A stretch of DNA of 63,920 nucleotides, the filler included, from Reclinomonas americana ATCC 50394 (taxonomy: Eukaryota): NCBI GenBank assembly GCA_048213135.1. It is 28 parts of 28 records of this genome, joined end to end, with 100 filler letters (N's around TTAATTAATTAA, not from the genome) between each part and the next. Parts side by side here need not be neighbours in the genome. Positions count along the whole stretch, not along the records: positions 1 to 3,116 come from AFZH01024709.1; 27 more parts are not named here. One strand, written 5' to 3'. The notes below the pieces were generated by a model that saw only the letters and a list, made by a program, of their open reading frames with translations, was not told the origin of the DNA and made no database searches. This document shows positions 1 through 63,920 of this stretch, in pieces. Within the stretch, counting starts at the first letter, position 1; each line of letters starts with the position of its first letter. The translations under genes and the position numbers were made by a program.

Positions 1-1573
1 TGGCCGTCAGCGACTGGAAGTGCGATGGATCGAGCATGGCGTCGACGCTGAGCGACATCTCCACACTGTCCTCGTACACATCCTGAATGGTCTCCGGTGA
101 CACCAATATGAAGGACGAGGCCAGCGCGAGAATGGCGTTGCGCACGCGGCACACACTCTCGCGCCCCGCCGTCTCGTCCGTCACCGTGCTGGCAGGCGAC
201 AGCCACACGTAGCCGTTGAGGCCGAGAATCATGTCCACGCCCAGCGCGGCGAACGAGTGAAAGTGCTGCTTGCACCGCTTGATGAGATGCGGTTGTACCT
301 CCACCAGCACACCGTTGCCGAGTCGTCCGTAGCGCGATGAACGCGTCTGCAGCGCCATTGAGCCATCCTGCTGATAAAACTGCTGCACCTCGGCGCTGAT
401 CAAGTCGCCCTCGGCGTACATGCTGCGCATGTTCAGCTGGTCCTCGTAGGTTCTTCGCCGCTGAGCGTCGCCCGGCAGTGTCACAGCCGACAGCAGCAGC
501 ACGGCGCTCTGGAACGAGTTCACATCGACCTTCCACCGCTTGTTGCCGACCTGAGCAGCGCGTGGCAAGTGTTGGAAAGACACGCAAACAAAAAAAAAAC
601 AACGAAAACAAAGCAACAACAAACATCGACAATGCGCCCGACCACCACGTCGCCCACGTGGCCTTGGTAGCGCGACTTGAGTGGCACCACCGACACCAGC
701 TGATTGACGCGCTCCACCACCCCGCAAATGGCGGCGTACAGGTGGTTATCGACCGAGTACGTTCCGTGGCCTCTGCGACACAAAAAGTTGTCGTTCAGAC
801 CTCAAACAAAAAAAAAACATTGGAACACTCTCGTCTTTGCGTGTCATCCTTGCACAGGGGCCAAGCTAATCTTCTCTGTATCGTTCCAATTTTTGAGTTT
901 GGCGAAGACCCGAAGGTCTTGCCGACTCCACACATGGTCTCCACCCACACTCATATGCACGCGGCGACACATGCCGCACGATGCATTATGGGACAAGCTG
1001 ATCGAAATCAGCGGCAAGTCTGCAATGGACACCACAGACACGAGAAATGTGCAGAACCCTTCCTCTGCCTCCAACGAGGTGCGCGGAGAATGTGTACAGA
1101 GTGGAGAGAAAGAGAAAGAGTGCAACAAAGTGCAAGAAAGTGTGCTGTTGTGCAGAAGGAGTCAGATGTTGAGTCGGCGGTCATGGCAGAGCCCACACGC
1201 GCACACGCACAACTCGGAGAACACGCACACACACACACACTACCACTGCCACGCTGCAGTTGTTGTGTGCTGCGTGCGCCTGAACGTCGAGAAGAGTGCA
1301 TTCCCCCAGCAATCTGAACACACTCTCTTATCCCTTCATCTCCTCTCCTTCTCCCTCCCTCCCGTCTCTCTTCTTCACACTGCCACCCTCACTCACTTGC
1401 CCACACACACACACACACACTCGACTGAGACCACACAGACACGCAGACACTCACCGCAAGTGACCCGTGTCATCCTCTAGAATCAAATCTCCCGGCGTCA
1501 CCAGGTGCACTCCGCTGTACTCGGTCACGCTCTTCCTCCGCCCACTACTGCCGGAGCCACTGCCACTCGCCAT
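1..1573 (-). CDS. RRP4: Exosome complex component RRP4/EXOSC2, 3'-partial; exons 1573-1455, 772-625, 550-<1
   Basis: Spliced translation MASG...[23 protein letters not shown]...[45 protein letters not shown]...[18 protein letters not shown]...[10 protein letters not shown]...GRLGNG...ILGLNGYVW matches the Rrp4 N-terminal, S1 and KH motifs; GT-AG introns of 682 and 74 nt keep the frame. Confidence 0.95.
813..928 (-). ncRNA. U6: U6 spliceosomal snRNA, inside RRP4 intron 1 on the same strand
   Basis: Minus strand reads GAGTCGGCAAGACC-TTCG-GGTCTTCGCCAAACTCAAAAATTGGAACGATACAGAGAAGATTAGCTTGGCCCCTGTGCAAGGATGACACGCAAAGACGAGAGTGTTCCAATG-T10: 5' UUCG hairpin, ACAGAGA box (873-879), AGC triad, ISL, oligo-U end. 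The 5' end is approximate (923-928). Confidence 0.96.
979..994 (-). promoter_or_regulatory. Putative PSE/USE-like snRNA promoter element for U6
   Basis: GTCCCATAATGCATCG lies about -66 to -51 from the inferred U6 start, where PSE/USE elements sit, and resembles the plant USE RTCCCACATCG. Only a weak TATA-like CATATGA near -30. Inference. Confidence 0.4.
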
Positions 1574-1726: not shown

Positions 1727-3116
1727 ATGGAGTACGACAGCGGGCACGGCGACTATGAGCGCGACATGTCGCCACCACCCGTGTCGGGCGGTGCAGCCTC
1801 GTCGCGATCGCGCAGCATTCTGGGCCACCCCGACGACGATGCACGGCTGGACGGGTGGCTGCGCTCGCATCTTGAACCCATGTGCGTGCTCAGTCTGTCT
1901 GTGCTGGTTGGCGACATGTCTGACTTGCAACGCACTCGCAGCTCGGATGCAGAGCCGTCGACGCTGGCCAACCTCGTCAAGGCCCTGTTGAAGCCGGAGC
2001 GCATTGATGATGCAGATCACCGGCGTCGCCTCTCAAACGAGCTCAAGGACTTTGTGTCGGATCCGCATCGTTGCGTCACCCTCCCCGAGCGTAGTGTGTG
2101 TTGCCGGCACTGCATTCTCATGCGGTGGGCGGTGCAGATGCTGATCGGTTTGTGGATGAGCTGGCCGAGGCGATTCACTCGCGGCGTTTCTCGCGCACCG
2201 TCGGTGGTGCGTCTTCGTCGTCGTCGTCGTCATCATCATCGCGACGGCCGTACGTGAGCGAGCGCGACCGGTCGGCAGGGCGACGCGACACCTGGCGGCG
2301 ATCGGAGCGTGGCTCGAGCCGCGAGCGCGACAAGCGACGACGCAGTCCGTCTCCGCAGAACGGCTACGGGCGGGTGAGCGATGACCACGATGCCGGTGCG
2401 CCGTACAAGCGCGCACGCAGTTATCGCAGTCGGTCACGGTCGCCGCCGCCCACCTCGGCTACGCGGCGTGGAGGTGACCAACACGGCGCACCGCCACCAA
2501 GTTGCGTGGCAGAGTTGCTGTTTTTTTTTCCTCAGCATGTCGACAGGGGCTCACTCCACCTGTCCGCAGTCCACGTTGGCGAGTCCGACAAGGACGGCGG
2601 TGGTGACATTGTGCCGTACGATCCCGAGTCGCCGTCCATCGCCGCCGTGTCGCCATCGGCGGGTGAGGGTGGTGCTGCAGCAGGTCATTTGCAGCAGCAA
2701 CAGCAGCAACAGCAGCAGCAACAACAACAACAACACCATGGTGGCCCTCCGCACATGCACCAGCCGGGTGGCACACCGTTTTATGCTGGCCCCCCGGGTG
2801 CGTATCTCGGCGGGCGTCCGCCCGGCTTTGCCCCCATGTACATGCCACGAGGAGGGCTTGAGATGTACAGATATCCGCCTGGCGGCATGATTGGCGTGCA
2901 TCCAGCAGCCGCCTACAGAATGGGACGCAATGGCCCGGCCGATGCCGGTGGTCCCGAGGGCGGACCACCGATGATGAGTGCGCCCGGTGGCGGCATGCTC
3001 ATGGGAGCTCCGCACGGTCCGCCTATGATGTACGCAGGTGGTGGAGGTCGGGGACGCGGGCGCGATGGCATGTGGAATGGATCCATGAGAGGCTCACGGC
3101 GCTCGTCGCAAGGAAA
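1727..3116 (+). CDS. RBM26/RBM27-like RNA-binding protein (PWI domain), spliced, 3'-partial
   Basis: Spliced LDGWLRSHLEPI|SDAEPSTLANLVKALLK...LSNELKDFVSDPH|HADRFVDELAEAI resembles the RBM26/27 PWI domain (WLSKTLEPICDADPSALAKYV). Followed by an RS-rich tract, YDPESPSI (cf. YNPEAPSI) and Pro/Gly/RGG-rich sequence. Introns 1882-1941 and 2070-2137. Confidence 0.7.
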
Positions 3117-3216
3117 NNNNNNNNNNNNNNNNNNNNNNNNNNNNNNNNNNNNNNNNNNNNTTAATTAATTAANNNNNNNNNNNNNNNNNNNNNNNNNNNN
3201 NNNNNNNNNNNNNNNN
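3117..3216. other. Artificial contig linker (first of 27)
   Basis: 44 N + TTAATTAATTAA (stop codons in all six frames) + 44 N. Same linker starts at 5654, 7050, 8918, 12081, 15243, 16480, 17634, 18993, 20867, 23995, 27121, 30242, 33360, 36478, 39585, 40950, 42788, 45890, 48985, 50495, 51997, 55080, 56441, 57693, 60759, 62063. Confidence 0.99.
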
Positions 3217-5653: not shown

Positions 5654-5811
5654 NNNNNNNNNNNNNNNNNNNNNNNNNNNNNNNNNNNNNNNNNNNNTTA
5701 ATTAATTAANNNNNNNNNNNNNNNNNNNNNNNNNNNNNNNNNNNNNNNNNNNNATTCTTCCGGGCGGCGGGACGGCAACGGCGGCAACTCCTTGGTGGGG
5801 CGATGCGTTAG

Positions 5812-5827
5812 ATGACATCGCTTTCAT
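5812..5827. promoter_or_regulatory. LacI-family operator-like palindrome (distal)
   Basis: ATGACATCGCTTTCAT: imperfect palindrome with central CG, upstream of a sugar ABC operon. Confidence 0.45.
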
Positions 5828-5898
5828 GACCCTGTCAATCGAACGAAAGGCACTGGAAGTTGCATAAAAAAGGGAAATTATCGCCGATGTGAACGCGC

Positions 5899-5927
5899 CT
5901 TGACCGAGAAAATGTAACCGCTATCAT
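5899..5927 (+). promoter_or_regulatory. Sigma70-type promoter overlapped by a LacI-type operator
   Basis: CTTGAC (5899) ... TATCAT (5922); operator ATGTAACCGCTATCAT (5912-5927) resembles TGNAANCGNTTNCA; RBS GGGAGG before ATG 5984. Confidence 0.5.
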
Positions 5928-5983
5928 CGCTATCGAAGCTTGCCCGGAGAGGCGAGGCGCCAGATCATTTCAGGGAGGGCGGC

Positions 5984-7049
5984 ATGGACCGCAGAACACT
6001 CATCAAGAGCGGCCTGGCTGCGGCGGGAACGGTCGCGATGCCGGCCTATCTGCGGGCGCAGTCTAACCGCAAGCTCAGTATCCTGACCTGGAACATCGCC
6101 GACCAGGAGGCGCTGTTCAAAGAGGAGTTCGCCGACTTCAAGGCGCAGAATCCGGGCGTCGAGATCGAATGGCTCGACAAGAAGGGGCCGGAGCTGCCGG
6201 CCTTCTACCAGACGCAGCTCGTCGCCGGCACGGCTCCCGACATCATCGACCTGCAGGGCATGATCTGGGTGGAGTGGGCGGCGAACGGCGCCCTGCTCGA
6301 CCTGACGCCCTATATGCAGAAGGAGCCTGACGTCGCCAAGCTCTACAACCAGGATTACCTGGCGAGCTTCGTCTACGACAAGAAGAACTATGTGGTTCCC
6401 TTCTACATCGCCAAGACGTTGCTGTTCTACAACAAGACGATGTTCAAGGAGGCGGGCCTCGCGGACGCGCCGAAGTCATTCGACGAGATCGTCAATTTCA
6501 GCCAGGCGATGGCGAAGGGCGAGAAGACCGGCTTCCTGACGCTGAACTTCGACTGGCTGTATTGGCCGCTGATGCAGATGAACGGCGTCGAGCTGCTGAA
6601 GCCGGACATGAAGACGCCGGCCTTCAACACGCCGAAGACGATCGAGGTGCTCGAGAAGCTGGCCAAGGCGACGGCCTCGGGCGGGATCAACAAGATCGCC
6701 TGGACCGGGCGCTGGGTCGAGCCAAACGGCGCCTTCGCCTCCGGCAATGTCGGCATGCTGCAGGCCCATTCGGCCTCTTATTTCTTCGTCAAGGGTCAGG
6801 CGCCCTGGGTCAATCCCGATACGCTGGGCGCAGCTCAGAATCCCGGCAACTGGTCGACGCCGACCAATCACGGCTTCGCCATCTCGAAATCGTCGAAGAA
6901 TCCGGACCTCGCCTGGGCCCTGGTCAAGCACATGACCGGCAACAAATGGGCGACCGAGTTTTCGGTGCGCCGACGTATCCTCACCGGCAACCTCGCTGCC
7001 GACAAGGTCGGGCTGGATAAGGTCAAGGCCGAGGATCCGCTGGCCCATG
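5984..7049 (+). CDS. Carbohydrate ABC transporter substrate-binding protein with Tat signal, 3'-partial
   Basis: MDRRTLIK twin-arginine signal; F..QNPGVEIEW, AGTAPDI, LFYNKTMFKEAGL, FASGNVGM, SKNPDLAW motifs. Confidence 0.92.
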
Positions 7050-7149: not shown

Positions 7150-8088
7150 ATGGAAATGGCTATGTCCGCCGCGCCCGAACGGCGGCGTACCTCCTTCCTG
7201 CGTAGGGCGACGACGCGCCAGGCCATCCTGGTCTGGTGCTTCCTCGCGCCGTCGCTGCTGATCTTCCTGCTCTATCGCATCCTGCCGCTGGCCTGGAACA
7301 TCATCCTCTCCTTCCAGGCCTGGTCGCCGCTGAAGCCGGCGGTCTTTATCGGCCTAGAGAACTATGAGGAGATGCTGACCGACGAGGTGTTCTGGCAATC
7401 GCTCTGGAACACGGTCTTCATCATCCTGTCGGCGCCGGTCGGCATCGCGATGGCGCTCGGCCTCGCCTTGCTGGTCAATTCCAACATCAGCGGCCGCAAC
7501 ATCTACCGCACGCTGATCTTCCTGTCCTATCCCCTGATGACGGTCGCGGTCGCGATCATCTGGCGCTGGATGTATGACGAGCGCGTCGGCCTCTTGAACT
7601 ATGTCGCGAGGCTGCTGCACCTCACCGACACGCCGATCCCGTTCCTCAATTCGTTCTTCTGGGCGCTGCCCTCGGTCGTCGTCGCCAATATCTGGCAGAT
7701 GCTCGGCTTCTACATGATCATCCTGCTGACCGGGCTACAGAACATCCCGAGCTCGCTGTTCGAGGCGGCCGAGATCGACGGCGCCACTGCCGGCGACCGC
7801 TTCTGGCGCATCATCCTGCCGCTGCTGCGCCCCTCGATCTTCCTGTGCTTCGTCATCGGCATGCTGAACTCGGTGACCAGCTTCGACCTGGTCTATGTCA
7901 TGACCGGCGGCGGCCCTGGCCGCGCTACCGAGATCCTCGTCACCTACATCTACAAGCTCGGCTTCGTGCAGACGCGCTTCGACTATGCGGCTGCAGTGAC
8001 GGTCGTGTTCTTCGTCTTCCTGATCACGGTCGCCTGGGCGGCGAACCGGCTCTCCGGCGGCAATGCCGGCGCGAGGGACATGGAATGA
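7150..8088 (+). CDS. Carbohydrate ABC transporter permease (UgpA/MalF type)
   Basis: FIGLENY, FWQSLWNT, GLQNIPSSLFEAAEIDGA (EAA loop), MTGGGPGRAT; start may be 7156 or 7162. Confidence 0.95.
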   Translation: MEMAMSAAPERRRTSFLRRATTRQAILVWCFLAPSLLIFLLYRILPLAWNIILSFQAWSPLKPAVFIGLENYEEMLTDEVFWQSLWNTVFIILSAPVGIAMALGLALLVNSNISGRNIYRTLIFLSYPLMTVAVAIIWRWMYDERVGLLNYVARLLHLTDTPIPFLNSFFWALPSVVVANIWQMLGFYMIILLTGLQNIPSSLFEAAEIDGATAGDRFWRIILPLLRPSIFLCFVIGMLNSVTSFDLVYVMTGGGPGRATEILVTYIYKLGFVQTRFDYAAAVTVVFFVFLITVAWAANRLSGGNAGARDME

Positions 8089-8900
8089 TGCGCCGTTCGC
8101 CGACCTGGCCGATCCACCTCGCCCTGATGGCGGTGTGCTTCGTGATGCTGGTGCCCTTCTACTGGGTGCTGAAGACTTCCGTCTCGGGCGAGAACATCTT
8201 CACTTTTCCGCCCAGCATCATCCCGCGCAACCCGCATCTCTTCTATTATGTCGATGTCTGGTACGCGATCCCGTTCGCCCGCTACTTCCTGAACAGCGTC
8301 ATCGTTTCGGTCATCACCATCGCCGCCAATGTGGTCTTCAACGCGATGGCGGGCTATGCGCTGACCCGCGATTTCCGGGGCAAGGGCTTCATCCTGATCC
8401 TGTTCCTGTCCTGCATGATGGTGCCGTTCCAGGCGACGATCATCCCGGCCTATCTGATCACCGGCCAGCTCGGGCTGCTAAATTCCTATGTCGGCCTGGC
8501 CCTGCCGCAGTTCTCGACGATCATCTGCATCTTCGTGTTCAAGGCGAGCTTCGATGCGATCCCGGGCTCGCTGATCGACGCGGCCAAGGTCGACGGCCTG
8601 CCGGAATGGCGCATCGTCTGGACGATCATGCTGCCGCTGGCCAAGTCTGCCATGGCGACGAACGTGATCCTCTCCTTCATCTGGTCCTGGAACAATTTTC
8701 TCTGGCCGCTGATCATGACGCGGACGCCGGAAATGCAGACGCTGCCGCTCGGGCTGGCGCGCTTCCTGTCCTATCAGGAGGATACGACCGGGGCGCTCTA
8801 CGCCTTCTGCATCATGGTGCTCGCACCCGGTATCCTGCTCTTCCTGCTGGCGCAGAAGGAGTTCATCCAAGGCCTCACCTCCGGCGCGACGAAGGGCTAG
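8085..8900 (+). CDS. Carbohydrate ABC transporter permease (UgpE/MalG type)
   Basis: Starts at the ATGA overlap; YFLNSV, IPGSLIDAAKVDG, WSWNNFLWPLI, QTLPLGL, QKEFIQGLTSGATKG. Confidence 0.95.
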   Translation: MMRRSPTWPIHLALMAVCFVMLVPFYWVLKTSVSGENIFTFPPSIIPRNPHLFYYVDVWYAIPFARYFLNSVIVSVITIAANVVFNAMAGYALTRDFRGKGFILILFLSCMMVPFQATIIPAYLITGQLGLLNSYVGLALPQFSTIICIFVFKASFDAIPGSLIDAAKVDGLPEWRIVWTIMLPLAKSAMATNVILSFIWSWNNFLWPLIMTRTPEMQTLPLGLARFLSYQEDTTGALYAFCIMVLAPGILLFLLAQKEFIQGLTSGATKG

Positions 8901-9017
8901 GCGATGGAAGCTTACTCNNNNNNNNNNNNNNNNNNNNNNNNNNNNNNNNNNNNNNNNNNNNTTAATTAATTAANNNNNNNNNNNNNNNNNNNNNNNNNNN
9001 NNNNNNNNNNNNNNNNN

Positions 9018-27338: not shown

Positions 27339-30241
27339 CAACTCGGAGCGAGTGACTCGGTATGTTAGCTTGCCTTCGTCATTCTCCTCTCTCTCTCTCT
27401 CCTCTCCTCTCCCTCCCTCCCTCCTTCCTCTTTCTTCACTCCCCCTTCTCCTTTTCATCCTCGTTTCCCCTCCTGCAGAATGATCAACTCGCAGCGCATC
27501 AACATGGCCTTCGAGGCGGTGGAGGAGGCCGTGCGTCTGCGCTGTCAGCGCACACTGGCGCAATTCAGTCGCGATCACCCCGACTTTGATGTGCGCGCGT
27601 GGGTGCCGACATTCACCCCCGCTGGCATGGATACAGCGGCTGTGAAGGTGTGGCGAGAGCGGCATGCTCCGCTCCAAACGGGTCGAGTCGCCCTGTTCAA
27701 GGAGAAGCGGGCTGTGGCACTGGCCTGGCGCGCTGCCTTTGAAGCCGATCCCTCGTCCGACCCCACATGTGACGGTTTCGACACGACGGCACTCACCTCC
27801 ATCATGTTGTACGGTGGCCTTGTGCAAGATGATGGTGGCAAGCTGCTGCTGATTGACGACACTGATGAACGCATGGCGGTGGAGGAGCTGAACGAAGTGA
27901 GAAAGGGATTGGCGCACAAGGACTTGGTGCTTACGGATGCCAGTGTGCAGGAGTACCTTGGTGACGGCGGTGTCTTCCTGTCCATCCTCCTGCTGCTGCA
28001 GGTGACGGCCGACGAGCATGCTCGATTATCAACTCGCATCTACGATGCTCGTCACGTTCAGCTCACCGTCAGCACATTCGAGGAGCGTCTGCATCGACTG
28101 GCTGTGCGTGAAATAGCTTACTATCACGAAGACGAGAGTGTGCGCAAGGACATGCAGATGTATGTGCCACTGCTGTGTTCACGTGATCATGACGGGTCGC
28201 CGAGTGAGACGATGCCGGATCTCTTGTCGGAGGTGGATGTTTTCCTCTCCGACACCAACATCACGCAGCGTGTGCTGGTGCTCTTTGGTAACAGTGGCGC
28301 CGGCAAGACCACCACCATGTCCGTGCTGGCCGAGCGAGCATGGCGACAGTGGCAGACGAGGGAGAGTCGGCGAGTGCCTGTTCGTGTGCCTCTTGGTGCA
28401 CTGCGCAATGCCGATGAGCGACTGTTGGAGGAGGCACTGGAGCGACTGTCACCCGAGTTGGGATTCAGCGAGTCGGATGTGCGACGGTTGAAGGAGGAAC
28501 CTCTGCTACTGCTGCTTGATGGATACGACGAGTTGTACCGTGGTGTGAATCTGTTTTTCAAGAACCAGCTGGATGTGTGTCGGAAAGTGAAGGTGATTAT
28601 CACATGTCGTGAGGATTACGCGTTGACGGCGCTGGGTGGTGTGACGCAGTATCGACGGTATTTTGCGCCGGTGGATGCACGCGGCCAGTTGCGCATGCAG
28701 CAGCTGACGGAGCGGCACATTGCACCATTTGACAAGGAGCAAACTGCGCAGTATTTTGAGCGACTCGTGCAACGAGATGGTGATGATGATGATGATGATG
28801 CCGATGATGAAGTGCGATGGTCGACTGCCGAAGAGTACATGCGTGCATTGAAAAATGTGCGTGGACTGGATGCACTGGTGTCGAATCCGTTCATGCTGTC
28901 GGTGGTGGCTCGCGTGCTACCGCAGTTGGTGGCGAGCGGAGTGCACCGACCGACTCGGTGTGATGTGTTTGACAAGTTTATTCGGCAGTGGATTGCGAGG
29001 GAGCAAGAGAGGCAGACGTGCCTCGGTGCGGAGCGTGTGCCTAATGAGGACACCTGTCTCGCATTCTGTGAGGGGCTGGCACGGTTGATGCACGAGACAA
29101 AGGTGGTTCGCGTATCCGTGACGGAGAATCGATCAGGCGATGAGGAGGATGACTTTGGTGGTGCACCACTTGCCATGCGTCGACGAGTGGAAGAGGGACC
29201 ATTTGACAAGTTCCTCGGTCACAAGAACCAGCATGTGCGAGTGTGCTGTCCGATTGTGCGACGGTATGCGACGACGCAGTGGGGATTCGTGCACCTGTCG
29301 TTGCTGGAGCACTGTGTGGCACGGCATGTATTTGCGTGGGAGACTTGGGATGAGGAGAGGAAGATGACGATGCAAGATGTGCAGCAGCATGTGTTGGCGG
29401 TGCGATTGCTGAATGACCGACCATCCTTGGTGGAGCAGATGGCCGAGGTGGTGCGACGGTCCCCTCGACTGCAAGCGAGATTGTGGGAGGTGATTGAGTT
29501 GTCACGGGAGGTGGACAGTCGGCGAGTTGTGACGGCAGCCGCGAATGCAGCGACGGTGCTGTGCGCAGCGCAAGTGTCGTTCAGTGGGCGCGACTTGTCG
29601 GGAGTGCGAGTGAGGGGTGCGGATTTGAGAGATGCGGTGATGCACAGGACGGTATGGAGAAAGGCAGACCTACGTGAGGTGAATTTGTGCATGGCGTTTG
29701 CAAAGGAGGCGGATTTCAGAGGGGCGGATGTGACGGGAGTGAAGTGGCCGAGGAAGCCGTTGGTGGGGCACAGTGATTCGATCAACTCTGTCGTCGTCTC
29801 GCCAGATGCGCAGCACGTGGTGAGCGCAAGTGAGGATAAGACGGTGCGAGTGTGGTCGCTGGCCAGCGGGCAGGTTGTGCACTTACTGGGAGGACATGCT
29901 GGCGGGGTGCGCGCTGTGACCATTACTTTCGATGGCCAACACATTGTGAGTGGCAGCGAGGACAGCACTGTTCGAGTTTGGTCCGTGGAGAGTGGAAAGG
30001 AGGTGCAACGATTGGAGGGACACACTGCTACTGTGTGCTCTGTTGCCGTCACTCCTGCTGATCAGTTCATTGTCAGTGGAGGTGGCGATAAGACAATACG
30101 ATTGTGGTCATTGGCGACTGGCATGGAGGAGCGACGGCTGGAGGGACACACCGGGTGGGTGTGGTCTGTCGCCGTTACCCCCGATGGTCAGCACGTTGTG
30201 AGTGGAAGTGGTGACAAGACTGTGCGGGTGTGGGCGTTGGC
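27339..30241 (+). CDS. NLR-like NACHT + pentapeptide-repeat + WD40 protein, partial at both ends
   Basis: Intron 27360-27478, then one exon of at least 2.76 kb: MYVPL; Walker A GNSGAGKT; Walker B LLLLDGYDE; KVIITCREDY; IAPFD; NPFML; FVHLSLLEH; AANAATVL; FSGRDLSGVRVRGADLRDA pentapeptides; four WD40 repeats. Confidence 0.92.
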
Positions 30242-31004: not shown

Positions 31005-32906
31005 ATCATATCTTGGGCACAGCAGCTGCCATCCGCCGCATGACGGTGGTGGTGATGGTGGTGATAGTGCTGCTGGTGGCCCGACGACTGATGCGAGTCG
31101 TGGGAAGAGGCCAGCTTCGAATCGGAGATCAGCGACGGAGGGTGCTGTCCGATACCACCGCCGCTACTGAGAAAACTCGACAAGCCCGAGTATTGCTGTT
31201 GTTGATGCTGCTGCTCGTGATGATGCTCCTGTGAAGCAGGTAAAATTTAGAGTCGTGCAACGACGACGCAGGCGACTGTCAACGACGTTCAACACACAAA
31301 CCATGGTGTCCGAGGTATCCATGGCCGACACAGTGGCACCATTGTTGTGTCTCTTAAGTGGCGGCTCGAACTCGCTTCCAGCCATTGCGCTGCCGCTGCC
31401 ATCGTCGCCCGAGGTGCTCTCCGACGAACTTTTGGAGCGCCTCTTGGCACCCGGCTTGGGTCCGCGCTTCTTGGCATTCTGCGAAATGTCGACGCACTCG
31501 ATGCTGCGCAGGGATTCGAGTCAGAGATCTACGACAAAGTATGGAAACTAGAAGCAGTCGGCGGCACACAAACCCCTTGCGCGTGCAGCGTGGGCACGGT
31601 CGAGTCTCCGAGCAACTGACGTGAGCCTGTCGGCATGGCAAGCAGGCGCACGTGACATTGCGACGTGCGCCGTTCTTAGCCGCCGACTTGCTGCCCTTGC
31701 CGCCAGCTCCCTGCTGGTCGTCGCCACCCATCTGCCCACCGAATGTGGCCACCTGCCCGTGCATGGTGGACAGCGCCGACGAGAAAGTCTCCAAGTCAGA
31801 CGGTGGGACCAGCTGGTGATGCTGGGATTGCTGATGGTGATGGTGATGCTGGTGCTGTGGCATCGCCGAGCGCATCATGCCCGGTCCCTGATGCGCGTGG
31901 TGATGGTGGTGTGACATGTCCATCTGCGACGGATCGAGGTACACCGGGTGCATCTGCATGTGGAACGGCTGACCTGCCTGGCCCACTGGACCATACAACC
32001 ACGGTTGCTGCTGTGGGGTGGATGGGAAACGAACAAGAGATGCGTGAGAGACCGTAAATAAAACAAGGACGAGAGAGATGCTGGCACGCAACATCCATCG
32101 TCACCGGCATGTGCATGTCGGGGCCGCGGAAGAAGACTGTCGGCCCACTGCCAGCTGCGGGGCCACTTTCGCCAGCAGAGTGCTGTCCGCACGAATGTGC
32201 CGGTGGCAGCGCCAGCTGCAGAGAGCCGTGGAGCGGCGGGGGTGGCGTGAGTCGAGACGGTCCTCCCTGCGGCGTCTGCAGCGACGGCAGCAGAAGCGGC
32301 GCGAACGAGAAAGTCGATGCCTGCAGCGACTGCGAATGCTGCGGAACGGACGGGGAAGACGAGGCCGATGAAGGCGCCGATGAGGACGACGACCCAGCCG
32401 CCATCCCCATCATCTCGCCAGGCGCGCTGTGCGGCATCATCGCCAGCGACTGCGGTGCTTCCATCCCGCCCGACGAGGATCCAAACGATCCCACAAACGG
32501 CGACATGAATAGCTGGCTCTGCGAGGGTCACGGAGTGAGCATCGTTCCCCTCATGGTTTCACGACTCACAGTGGACTGTCTGACATACCGATGCGCTATT
32601 TCCGCCGGCCATCGGCGGCAGCCCGTGTCGCATGTGCTGCTGCTGCATCATGTGTTGCTGCTGGTGCTGGTGGTGATGGTGGGAGTGGGAGTGATGCGAG
32701 TGGTGCTGGTCATCGCTTCCTCCGTGACCCATCTCGCCCATCTCCTTGCCCACCAGAGTGGCTGCGCTCAACAGCGACGTGGTCGACGCCGAGGCGGGCG
32801 CACCACTCATGTTCGATGAAAACGGAGGAAGCATGGGTACACCGTCGCGGCCGGGACCAGCCATGCGCTGCTGCTGCTGGAGCATGTGGTGACTGTGATC
32901 ACTCAT
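30342..32906 (-). CDS. Zn(II)2Cys6 binuclear-cluster transcription factor, Gln/His-rich, 3'-partial
   Basis: Spliced ACLPCRQAHVSCSETRPCPRCTRKG|IECVDISQNAKKRGPKPG = Cx2Cx6Cx5Cx2Cx6C plus KKRGPK; polyQ/polyH tracts; likely start MSDHSHH at 32906. Confidence 0.85.
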
Positions 32907-56540: not shown

Positions 56541-57692
56541 CCGACCCGAGCACGCGGACGAGCTGCGCCTCGAGCGCACGCCAGGCGCCGAGCTCATACG
56601 ACAGCACGATCAGGATCGGCGAGCTGACGACGATCAGCAGGCACGCCCAGAGCGGCCAGCCGAGCGCAGCGCCGATGATCGCGACAACGGGCAGCGCGAT
56701 CACGGAGATCTGCAGCGGCGAGTTCTTCGGGAACTCCGAGACGAGCCAGGCGTGCAGCAGATACAGCGTGACCATGAACGCGAGCACCGGGAGCGCGATC
56801 GACGAGATCGCCGTCAATGTGCTCACGTGATAGTGCTCGTCGTAGACGTAACCGACCACATGCAGGCCGGCGCCGACCGCGGCGATCGCGGCGAACAGCA
56901 CGATGTGGCCGTATCCCCACACGAGCGCCTTGGAGCGACGCACCGCGAGGATCGGCGCGCTCGGCACCATGAAGTACACCCACCACAGCGCGAACGCCAT
57001 CACGATCCCGAGACCGATCACCGCGATGGACGAGACCGACCAGCCCTCGGCATCCGTCACCGCCTGCGCGGCGACGAGTGTGCCGAACACCGTCTCGCCG
57101 AGCGCGATGATCGCGAGCAGCGCGTAGCGCTCGGCAATGTGATGCGGATGCCACGGGGTGGCGCCTCCGCCATGACGGAAGCCCTTCGTCTCCGCGATGA
57201 TCGGGCTGGCCCAATCGATCGTCGAGACGACGAGTGCGCCGATCAGGAACCCGAACGGATCCAGCGGAAGGAAGATCAGTACGACCCAGCCCACCTGGGC
57301 GATGCCGATGACCATCGCGTAGGTCTTGGCGACGGAGCGATACTTCGGGTTTCCGTGCGCCGCGCGCCACCACTGGGCGATCACCGCGACGCGCATCACC
57401 ACATAGCCGGCGACCATGACCTCGTTCGCGATCTGTTGCCCGCGCTCCAGCGAGGCGAACACCTGAGGAAGCGCGATCGCGAGCACCACGACACCCGCCA
57501 TCTGCACCATCGTCAGCACGCGGAACAGCCAGTCATCGGTGTCGAACGCCGAGGCGAACCACGAGTAGTTGATCCACGCCCACACGATCGCGACCATCGC
57601 GAAGCAGAAGCCGCCGACGCCGGCCGCGATGTCTCCGTGCGCGATCGCCGAGGCGAGCTGGTTGCCGGCGACCCCGAACGCGGCGACGAACG
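56541..57692 (-). CDS. ltrA: Low temperature requirement protein A (LtrA), partial
   Basis: WAWINYSWFASAFDTDD, TPWHPHHIAERYALLAIIALGE, WWVYF, WGYGH. Confidence 0.93.
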
Positions 57693-62162: not shown

Positions 62163-62588
62163 CACTCCGCCGTGCGCACGCAGAGGGTTGGTGTCTCCGG
62201 CAGCCATCAGCTTGGCCCGCAGTCCGAGCCGCCGGGAGATGAGCATGCCCATGAGCGAGGCGAGCGTCAGCACCCCGAGCGCACCGATGTTGACGCCGAT
62301 GAAGACGACCACGTGGCCGAACGGTGACCAGTAGTTCGCCATGTCGACGGTCGCGAGGCCCGTGACACAGATCGTCGAGACCGCGGTGAAGAGGGCGTCG
62401 CTCAACGGAGTGACCGTGCCGCTCGCCGAGGCGATCGGCAGGGACAGCAGCACGGTGAACACCAGGATGAGCAGAGCGAAGACGACGATCGCGAAGCGCG
62501 ACGGCGACGACGTGACGATGTGCTTGACCCAGTCGGCGACGCCTTCCAGGCGCTCGCGAGGAGACGACGCCGAAGCGATGCCCGACAT
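62163..62588 (-). CDS. TrkH/KtrB potassium transporter, N-terminal part
   Basis: LLSLPIAS...DALFTAVSTICVTGLATVD...WSPFGHVV...GALGVLT; RBS AAGGGGG before ATG 62588. Confidence 0.92.
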
Positions 62589-62691
62589 CGCGTCCCCCTT
62601 CGTCCTGCGCCTGCCCGCTGTGCGGTCACACGGCGCCTTTCGCCGAGCCTTCGTCATGGTACTCCGTGCCGGGGACGACTACCCTGATCTC

Positions 62692-63108
62692 ATGACGGAC
62701 ATCTTCGACGTGATCGCAGACGGTACGAGGCGCGACATCCTCCAGCTCCTGCTGCGACGCACGGCCGAAGGCGAGTCGGGCACGAGCGTGAGCCACATCG
62801 TCGCCGACCTCGGCATCAGTCAGCCCACGGTGTCGAAGCACCTCAAGGTCCTGCGCGACGCCGAGCTGGTCTCGGTGCGCGAAGACGGGCAGCGCCGCTT
62901 CTACAGCCTCTCCGTCGAGCCGCTCGAGGTCGTCGACGACTGGCTGGTGCCTTTCCTCGTCGACGCGTACGGCGACGATGCGCCTGACATCGACTACCCC
63001 GTCATCCCGCTGACCGACAGCGCCGCCCACGCGGCCGAGGTGGTCGGCCGTGCCGCGGCATCCGCCAAGCATGTCGTGACGTCTGCGCTCAAGCGCTTCG
63101 GCGCCTGA
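62692..63108 (+). CDS. ArsR/SmtB-family transcriptional regulator
   Basis: DIFDVIADGTRRDILQLL...LGISQPTVSKHLKVLRDAELV..REDGQRRFYSL; TACCCT -10 box 6 nt before ATG (leaderless). Confidence 0.92.
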   Translation: MTDIFDVIADGTRRDILQLLLRRTAEGESGTSVSHIVADLGISQPTVSKHLKVLRDAELVSVREDGQRRFYSLSVEPLEVVDDWLVPFLVDAYGDDAPDIDYPVIPLTDSAAHAAEVVGRAAASAKHVVTSALKRFGA

Positions 63109-63324
63109 CGGCATCCGCTCGGGCGGTCGCATTCCGCTCCGGACATGACTCGCCCCCGATGACAGGGGGGCATGTCATCAGGGGCGATCCGCGGGCCCCA
63201 GCCCGCGTGGACTCGGCGGTGCCGGCACAAGTCCTGCCGTCACCATCGCAGGTCTGGCTGGGTGGAAGGCCCGCAACAGCTATGCCTCAGCTGGGACTCC
63301 GTCCGTCCTCCGCGGTTCCCGGTG

Positions 63325-63920
63325 TCATCGGCGAGCGGCCTTGCGGCGGAAGAGCCATGCGCCCCACATCACCGCGACAAGAAGGATGAGCAGGCACCAG
63401 CCGATCGCCCACCACGGCTCGTCGTGCAGCGGCGCGTCGGTCAGCAGTCCGCGGATGGTCTCGACGATGGGCGTGATCGGCTGGTTGGCGGCGACGGGCT
63501 GCAACCACGCTGGCATGCTGGCCACGGGGACGAAGGCGCTGGAGAGGTACGGCAGGAACAGCAGCACGAAGCCGTAGCCGTTGGCCCCCTCGGGGCTGCC
63601 CGCGGCGAGACCGATCGCGGCGAACAGGTACGTGATCGCCAGGATGTAGAGCGCGATCAGACCTGTCAGGGCGATCCACTCCAGCAGCGTCGCGCTCGGC
63701 CGGAAGCCGACGAGGATGCCCACCCCGATCACGATCCCCGTCGCGATGAGGTTGCGCAGCACGCTGGCGACGACATGCCCGGTGAGCACGGCTCCGGCCC
63801 GCAGCGGCATCGTGCGGAAGCGGTCGATGATCCCGGTGCGCATGTCGTTCGCGACATACACGGCCGTCGATGATGCGCCGAAGCCCGCGCAGGTGAGGAT
63901 GATCCCCGGGACCACGTAGT
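63325..63920 (-). CDS. ABC-2 type (DrrB-like) exporter permease, 5'-partial
   Basis: VPGI...DMRTGIIDRFRTMP...LSSAFVPVASMPAWLQPVAANQPITPIVETIRGLL. Confidence 0.92.
   Translation of the reverse strand, partial: YVVPGIILTCAGFGASSTAVYVANDMRTGIIDRFRTMPLRAGAVLTGHVVASVLRNLIATGIVIGVGILVGFRPSATLLEWIALTGLIALYILAITYLFAAIGLAAGSPEGANGYGFVLLFLPYLSSAFVPVASMPAWLQPVAANQPITPIVETIRGLLTDAPLHDEPWWAIGWCLLILLVAVMWGAWLFRRKAARR

Follow-up and report, generated by a model that had tools for sequence, protein, structure and literature searches.

A U6 small nuclear RNA gene nested in sense orientation in the first intron of RRP4: a candidate autonomous RNA polymerase III unit within a protein-coding gene

Small nucleolar RNAs (snoRNAs) encoded in introns are processed from the host pre-messenger RNA and lack promoters of their own; their ends are set by proteins of the box C/D or H/ACA type. 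The present report concerns a different kind of intronic RNA gene, a U6 small nuclear RNA (snRNA) gene inside the first intron of RRP4, the EXOSC2 homologue, which encodes a cap subunit of the exosome, in DNA assembled under the name Reclinomonas americana ATCC 50394 (GCA_048213135.1). The literature describes several related systems. Genes that RNA polymerase III (Pol III) reads from their own promoters are reported to sit in introns in either orientation (PMC6619189), and intronic non-coding RNAs of C. elegans that have upstream motifs are described as expressed independently of their hosts (PMC2527325). In human, the snRNA gene RNU4ATAC is located within intron 2 of CLASP1, on the opposite strand (PMC12703291), and type 3 Pol III units are listed within the introns of several genes (17A in GPR51, 38A in KCNIP4, 51A in SORL1, and others; PMC7328520). 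In mouse, a Pol III-occupied MIR short interspersed nuclear element (SINE) in the first intron of Polr3e is reported to impede RNA polymerase II (Pol II) (PMC5358760; PMC7328520).

The whole stretch of DNA analysed (the window) was 63,920 nucleotides (nt) long and consisted of 28 contigs of 1.0-3.1 kb, separated by 100-nt linkers of the form N...TTAATTAATTAA...N (e.g., 3117-3216 and 5654-5753). The U6/RRP4 locus was found on the first contig (positions 1-3116; 3,116 nt; GC content 0.60). Since the locus is confined to this contig, any statement below about introns "here" or about "this genome" refers to this contig only. Positions are given along the window, and the coordinates of all features are collected in Table 1.

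The window was scanned against Rfam by using cmscan, both at the gathering threshold and at E <= 1. At both settings the sole match in the whole window was a U6 snRNA (RF00026; gathering score 44) running from 923 to 813 on the minus strand, with a score of 86.3 bits, an E value of 1.3e-20 and an alignment over model positions 1-105 of 105 that was not truncated; neither U4 nor U2 was detected in the window by Rfam. Within the U6 core (about 58 nt), the ACAGAGA box and the AGC triad are intact, and the two positions that depart from the consensus lie elsewhere in the core. The 5' stem-loop, a 9-base-pair (bp) stem with one bulge and a UUCG loop, was recovered in both the minimum-free-energy and the centroid folds, and base pairing joins the segment immediately 5' of ACAGAGA to the RNA's 3' end (in the centroid structure as well). 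Overall fold energy was no better than that of shuffled sequences (z = -0.96), which is unremarkable for U6 alone. A run of ten T residues (T10; 817-808) stands directly at the 3' end of the U6 and would be the source of its oligo-U. An exact-match scan with the 5' part of this U6 over prokaryotic genome contigs returned 0 matches. Judged by its sequence, the copy is complete and well conserved. A first-pass annotation of this DNA had proposed a full-length U6 nested in sense in the first intron of RRP4, and had suggested an Infernal search with RF00026; that search returned the one full-length U6 given above, and together with the following RRP4 gene model it bears the proposal out.

Splicing the segments 1573-1455, 772-625 and 550-2 of the minus strand gives an open frame. 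At the boundary between exon 1 and intron 1 (1455/1454) the sequence reads ...CTTGCG/GTGAGT, and the intron ends in ...GTGTCGCAG before position 772. The Pfam match to ECR1_N (17-38) begins at the first residue of exon 2, the two parts of the match to RRP4_S1 (1-15 and 17-73) meet across intron 2, and KH_6 follows; the domain order of RRP4/EXOSC2 (PF14382, PF21266, PF15985) is thereby present over exons 2 and 3. For exon 3, the best database match was the exosome complex component RRP4 of the jakobid Seculamonas ecuadoriensis (63% identical, 100% coverage), and the next full-coverage matches were at most 54% identical. In a multiple alignment, exon 1 was aligned with the N-terminus of the RRP4 proteins of Seculamonas, Balamuthia and Pythium. 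It fell on VTPGDLIVEDDSGFL of the Seculamonas protein, immediately before GHGTY, and its end, up to (R), corresponds to VTPGDLIVEDDSGFLR of the same protein. On this alignment, exon 1 is read as encoding a conserved part of RRP4. The RRP4 homology joins exactly across 1454-773, and therefore intron 1 is real, with the U6 inside it in sense orientation; the intron length of 682 nt given by the first-pass annotation agrees with the open spliced frame, the Pfam matches and the Seculamonas alignment.

A nested arrangement of this kind could be produced by an assembly error, in which a U6 fragment was wrongly joined into an RRP4 contig, and the assembly is indeed highly fragmented and of mixed origin. 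However, the U6 has intron sequence on both sides, within good splice sites and between in-frame RRP4 exons, and the intron occupies a position known in other eukaryotes. A chimera is not expected to place a U6 inside a well-formed intron at a shared position, and we give this explanation next to no weight.

The position of intron 1 was compared across other eukaryotes by means of a metagenome scan with RRP4 exon 3, which returned 19 RRP4 loci from distant eukaryotes; the junction was checked at each by using tblastn with the spliced protein. Identity reached 74% at the best of these loci, over a segment of 46 residues, and 59% where the alignment exceeded 100 residues; no close relative was present among the 19. 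Eleven loci were continuous across the intron 1 junction (L001, L002 and L004-L012), many of them resembling complementary DNA or intron-poor, and three were uninformative at that point (L003, L013 and L017). The remaining five were interrupted exactly at the junction (L014, L015, L016, L018 and L019), with L016 and L018 being near-identical. When six loci were checked base by base, five had an AG one base before the GGN codon of GHGTY, which is the same position and phase 2, and L004 was continuous. Given that position and phase are common to five distant RRP4 loci, the position of intron 1 is, on this comparison, ancient. As a separate observation, the intron of L015 at the GHGTY position is only about 44 nt long.

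What is peculiar to the present locus is the size and the content of intron 1. The first-pass annotation had set its length against about 60-120 nt for most introns; two other introns are firmly placed on the contig (74 nt at 624-551, and 60 nt at 1882-1941 in the neighbouring gene), and one or two further probable introns were read from the sequence (about 57-85 nt, and 69 nt). Intron 1 is about ten times the length of its neighbours, which holds on a small sample, and the earlier statement about introns in general stands for these two short introns of one contig.

Upstream of the U6, with +1 placed at 923, lies an element, GTCCCATAATGCATCG, which resembles the upstream sequence element (USE) or proximal sequence element (PSE) of snRNA genes. 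The first-pass annotation had reported such an element at -66 to -51; the element is present, and its position is about 5 nt further upstream (-71 to -56). Within it, TCCCATAA at -70 to -63 agrees exactly, in position as well as in sequence, with the Dictyostelium upstream sequence element (DUSE), which is described as [AT]CCCA[AT]AA at about 63 bp upstream of non-coding RNA genes (PMC3188802) and as being used by both Pol II and Pol III snRNA genes (PMC7919456). The plant USE is given as RTCCCACATCG at -70, together with a TATA box at -28 to -30 (PMC9845283). The two ends of GTCCCATAATGCATCG, GTCCCA and CATCG, are the two halves of this plant USE, with 5 extra nt (TAATG) between them. The gap from the USE-like element to a TATA-like box further downstream is 22 bp counting the 16-mer and 27 bp counting the 11-mer; spacings quoted for Arabidopsis are 23-24 bp in Pol III genes and 32-34 bp in Pol II snRNA genes (PMC8287931). 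The spacing here is nearer to the Arabidopsis Pol III class than to the Pol II class.

Motif frequencies were counted over the 127,840 strand positions of the window, where both motifs are rare. WCCCAWAA was found 2 times (2.35 expected) and TCCCA-N0-6-CATCG was found once (1.7 expected), and the probability of a chance match in the right 20-nt slot and on the right strand upstream of the lone U6 was estimated at about 3-4 in 10,000, a post hoc figure for a single gene. When GTCCCATAATGCATCG was sought across the window allowing up to 3 mismatches, no site besides its own was found. The looser motif WCCCAYAA occurred 8 times (3.7 expected), and the other 7 occurrences had nothing RNA-like downstream.

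Because the USE/DUSE- and TATA-like elements stand at the expected distances and T10 stands at the 3' end of the RNA, the locus is probably a working, autonomous Pol III U6 gene with a gene-external SNAPc-type promoter, nested in sense orientation in RRP4 intron 1. From these elements we infer promoter function, the choice of polymerase and expression. A SNAPc-type factor would bind the USE/DUSE-like element at -71 to -56 and TBP/TFIIIB would bind near -30, at the weak TATA-like box. Pol III would then initiate at G923 and terminate in T10, and its product would be about 106 nt long, with a U tail in addition. Pol II would read RRP4 through the U6 unit, and the entire 682-nt intron would subsequently be spliced out. 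The T run may serve both the polymerase and the spliceosome. The first-pass annotation had left two alternatives, a Pol III unit inside a Pol II gene and a U6 released from the intron; the former is the better supported of the two by the USE/DUSE- and TATA-like elements and T10, with a putative promoter at one gene.

Several points weigh against an autonomous Pol III gene. The U6 copy is known here from its DNA sequence, and the locus could be one of several U6 copies and not the active one. GTCCCATAATGCATCG matches the plant USE only with a 5-nt insertion, or at 8 of 11 positions ungapped, the TATA-like box CATATGA is weak, and the motif comparisons were picked after the sequence had been seen. 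The motif is seen at a single gene, the window having one U6 and no other snRNA gene. Finally, since runs of nine or ten T residues (T9-T10) also occur in two U6-free introns of the contig, T10 alone is no evidence of a Pol III terminator.

Two other U6 promoter layouts were checked. In trypanosomatids, an upstream transfer RNA (tRNA) gene at about 100 bp supplies the A and B boxes of U6. The window contained 0 tRNA genes according to ARAGORN, and none by Rfam at E <= 1. In the layout of yeast SNR6, the A box is intragenic and the B box is downstream. No match of at least 9/11 to the B box (GGTTCGANNCC) was found downstream of the U6 within 300-812, and none of at least 9/11 to the A box (TRGCNNAGTGG) was found inside 813-923. 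Trypanosomatid-type and yeast-type promoters were rejected, as their parts were not found in the window or at the locus; of the three layouts it is the gene-external one that fits, as judged from motifs.

The 3' end of intron 1 combines the end of the U6 unit with the acceptor. T10 (817-808) is followed by 35 nt (807-773) to the AG, which is the distance of about 35 nt that the first-pass annotation had given. No run of four or more T residues occurs on the U6 strand from the start of the intron to the end of the U6, and T10 is the first. Downstream of it lie a branch-point-like CTGAAC, read on the model of a CTGAC located about 22 nt before the acceptor in the 60-nt intron of the neighbouring gene, and a T5 run, which could serve the intron itself as a short pyrimidine tract, or Pol III as a back-up stop.

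With CTGAAC and T5 lying downstream, T10 was at first read as unable to be the pyrimidine tract of the intron; this reading was dropped after a homopolymer count. Runs of eight or more T residues numbered three in the 63.9-kb window over both strands, all of them on the first contig and each on the sense strand of an intron. Apart from the T10 of intron 1, these are the T10 of RRP4 intron 2 and the T9 of a probable 69-nt intron in the neighbouring gene. Fungal short introns are known to carry pyrimidine tracts upstream of the branch point. Introns of this contig thus seem to share the habit of placing a T run 35-40 nt upstream of the acceptor, ahead of the likely branch point, and in its last 45 nt intron 1 has the appearance of a usual short intron of the contig, as seen in the 3' half of such an intron. 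Both T10 runs are flanked alike (TG-T10-GTTTG, a 17-nt identity), which could reflect an intronic T-tract habit of the organism, or else the U6 terminator region may have been duplicated locally.

Given that T9-T10 runs stand near the acceptor in two neighbouring introns, we infer that T10 plausibly doubles as Pol III terminator and intronic T-tract; the opposite is also conceivable, namely that a T-tract already present in the intron simply came to serve U6 as its terminator. The suggestion of the first-pass annotation that the terminator could serve as the pyrimidine tract is strengthened by these two introns, with their runs 39-40 nt before the acceptor, and weakened by the CTGAAC and T5 that lie downstream of T10.

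The contig is one 3.1-kb fragment among small contigs of mixed origin, and it is conceivable that the intron carries an inactive or redundant copy (a young pseudogene or a silent paralogue) while working U6 comes from other loci; the two core positions off the Rfam consensus and the weakness of the TATA-like box are in keeping with such a copy. The full-length match, at 86.3 bits against 44, nonetheless retains ACAGAGA, AGC, the 5' stem-loop and the complementarity of the 5' and 3' parts, and a promoter-like element stands at the expected distance. Retro-copies usually show target-site duplications, an A-tail and truncation. No direct repeats or target-site duplications were found flanking the U6 unit, nor was there an A-tail or truncation, and the upstream 531 nt of intron 1 had no match elsewhere in the window except low-complexity sequence. 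The lack of flanking direct repeats and the non-repeat upstream half of the intron argue against a retro-copy, and we regard an inactive copy as rather unlikely.

Production of U6 from the host transcript would require no promoter of its own. The Pol II transcript of RRP4 would be spliced, and exonucleases would trim the lariat or debranched intron back to a protein-protected U6, as in the case of intronic snoRNAs. The sense orientation fits this route, as does the placement near the 3' end of the intron, with the last T 35 nt from the acceptor, and the host itself encodes a subunit of the exosome, a machine for such trimming. Yet the promoter-like elements at canonical distances argue against dependence on the host, and nothing at the locus requires release from the intron. 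A product of trimming would have a 5' monophosphate, whereas known U6 keeps a gamma-methyl capped 5' triphosphate. Rfam detected nothing of snoRNA type within the intron, phrase searches of open-access text brought up no earlier case of a U6 processed from an intron, and none of the 19 other RRP4 loci holds a U6. The release of U6 from the intron, the second of the alternatives of the first-pass annotation, is on these grounds very unlikely, and a Pol III gene with its own promoter is the reading that we carry forward.

The same set of loci bears on the choice of host. Apart from the lack of U6, only two tRNA matches were obtained at the 19 other RRP4 loci, and the exosome link consequently looks accidental. 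A functional tie between U6 and the exosome, which the first-pass annotation had implied, is left unsupported, and the pairing is, from this comparison, probably coincidental. RRP4 is most likely an accidental host; lying about 650 bp from a bidirectional housekeeping promoter, its old intron would offer open chromatin. In L015, an unrelated eukaryotic metagenome contig, a tRNA gene at 649-720 (plus strand) precedes the RRP4 start codon by about 175 nt and has the same orientation; it is a second Pol III gene adjoining RRP4, and probably a coincidence.

A closer relationship would arise if the organism had no U6 gene other than this one, and if the output of either the U6 or its host were coupled in cis, with the shared T10 as the physical link. 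We consider this highly improbable. If it were true, Pol III and SNAPc occupancy in the first intron could throttle Pol II elongation through RRP4, or part of the U6 pool could be rescued from the spliced RRP4 intron, and the supply of the catalytic RNA of the spliceosome would be tied to the level of an RNA-surveillance subunit.

Table 1. Coordinates of the U6 unit, its host gene and neighbouring features on the first contig (window positions)
Feature	Coordinates	Strand	Remarks
U6 snRNA gene (Rfam match)	813..923	-	RF00026; RNA body 923-818, then T run
USE/PSE-like element GTCCCATAATGCATCG	979..994	-	-71..-56 (+1 = 923); unique in window
Weak TATA-like box CATATGA	951..957	-	-34..-28; read from the sequence and from its position relative to the plant TATA
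T10 run	808..817	-	candidate Pol III terminator and source of U6 oligo-U; possible intronic T-tract
Branch-point-like CTGAAC	793..798	-	A residues 21-22 nt before acceptor; putative, by analogy with intron of neighbouring gene
T5 run	782..786	-	between branch-point-like motif and AG
RRP4 exon 1	1455..1573	-	119 nt, ATG at 1573; 39 residues + 2 nt, ending within Arg codon before GHGTY
RRP4 intron 1	773..1454	-	682 nt, GTGAGT...CAG, phase 2; contains U6 unit
RRP4 exon 2 (GHGTY...GRIVD)	625..772	-	Pfam ECR1_N 17-38, RRP4_S1 1-15; alignment
RRP4 intron 2	551..624	-	74 nt; holds T10 at 599-590
T10 in RRP4 intron 2	590-599	-	39 nt before acceptor
RRP4 exon 3 (S1 + KH domains)	2..550	-	extends past contig end; Pfam RRP4_S1 17-73, KH_6
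Divergent neighbouring gene	1727..3114	+	ATG at 1727, 153 nt (1574-1726) from RRP4 ATG; short introns, the first at 1882-1941
T9 in probable 69-nt intron of neighbouring gene	2521-2529	+	40 nt before AG

Two short resemblances between the U6 and RRP4 were noted at the locus, both at the level expected by chance in 1 kb. An 11-mer of the U6 (AGGATGACACG, minus strand; 840-850) recurs exactly in RRP4 exon 1 (1466-1476), and a 13-nt stretch close behind the 5' splice site (1450-1438) shows 85% complementarity with U6 845-833.

The product of the divergent neighbouring gene is a low-complexity protein rich in Ser, Arg and Gln (poly-Ser, RS-like and poly-Gln stretches) with no Pfam match. Its N-terminus (...LDGWLRSHLEPI SDAEPSTLANLVKALLK...) resembles an N-terminal domain of the RBM26/27 type, for which Pfam returned no match. 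RRP4 and this gene have a 153-nt divergent promoter region (1574-1726) in common.

The rest of the window is made up of small contigs of mixed origin. At least seven contigs are bacterial-like, with uninterrupted open reading frames (ORFs) and a GC content of 0.61-0.69 (e.g., 5754-7049, 7150-8917, 56541-57692 and 62163-63920), and carry the domains SBP_bac_1, BPD_transp_1, LtrA, ArsR-type helix-turn-helix, isochorismatase with PP-binding, CN_hydrolase and MFS/GDSL. On the remaining contigs of about 3 kb (GC content 0.53-0.60), only NACHT/WD40 (27369-30239) and a weak fungal-type Zn_clus (31357-32100) were found; a Pfam search of 56 ORFs from the other eukaryote-like contigs gave the WD40 and the weak Zn_clus match only. 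The organism, a poorly sampled protist, has a jakobid as its nearest named relative on the strength of one protein, RRP4, and the U6/RRP4 contig may itself make up a small part of an assembly of mixed origin.

As a probable Pol III gene within a Pol II gene, the locus is compact, and the sharing of 45 nt of DNA (T10, branch point and acceptor) by two polymerases and the spliceosome could be studied there. If the upstream element is functional, it would give an initial view of how snRNA promoters are built in a jakobid-like lineage. The TCCCA core would then be common to this lineage, plants (USE) and Dictyostelium (DUSE), which would speak for an ancient external U6 promoter of the SNAPc type rather than for the tRNA-linked layout of trypanosomatids, the better-studied relatives of this lineage. 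The pairing of U6 with the exosome, probably a coincidence, should not be over-read. There is also a lesson for annotation, in that such a U6 would be hidden as RRP4 intronic sequence, as RNU4ATAC is described to have been hidden in CLASP1 in the clinical setting (PMC12703291).

Phrase searches of open-access text returned no report of a U6 gene in the intron of an exosome gene, or of jakobid snRNA genes, and the term 'snRNA' does not occur in the text of the Andalucia godoyi genome paper.

With respect to the known systems, the arrangement is like that of the intronic snoRNAs in its sense orientation within the intron of a gene of an RNA-processing pathway, and differs from them in having promoter-like elements and no C/D or H/ACA boxes that Rfam could find. 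The putative promoter resembles those of plant U6 and U3, as these are described, in that GTCCCA...CATCG occupies about -70 to -56, with a TATA-like box near -30 and a spacing nearer to that of Pol III genes (PMC9845283; PMC8287931), but here there are 5 extra nt (TAATG) and the TATA is weak, and the organism is not a plant. The match of TCCCATAA to the DUSE is exact in sequence and position (PMC3188802; PMC7919456), although that element belongs to the Amoebozoa and the comparison made here is for a single gene.

Among nested genes, the C. elegans loci described in PMC2527325 are likewise small RNA genes in introns with a PSE-like upstream motif, in another organism and mostly of other RNA classes. 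RNU4ATAC in CLASP1 is, as here, a spliceosomal snRNA gene wholly within an intron of a protein-coding gene, and it forms its own transcription unit, as U6 probably does in RRP4; it is, however, antisense and encodes an RNA of the minor spliceosome, whereas U6 is a Pol III RNA and is co-oriented with its host. The human type 3 units provide gene-external Pol III promoters of the PSE/TATA type inside Pol II introns, which at the present locus are putative, and they are lineage-specific regulators reported to affect host splicing, in contrast to the universal U6. The MIR of Polr3e is also a Pol III unit in the first intron of a functionally related pathway gene, so that feedback through interference would be possible at either locus; the MIR lies antisense to its host, its type 2 promoter is internal, and its interference was shown experimentally, whereas RRP4/U6 is known at the level of sequence. 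Nested Pol III genes in introns are an established category, and U6 in RRP4 is a further example of it which calls for no new mechanism.

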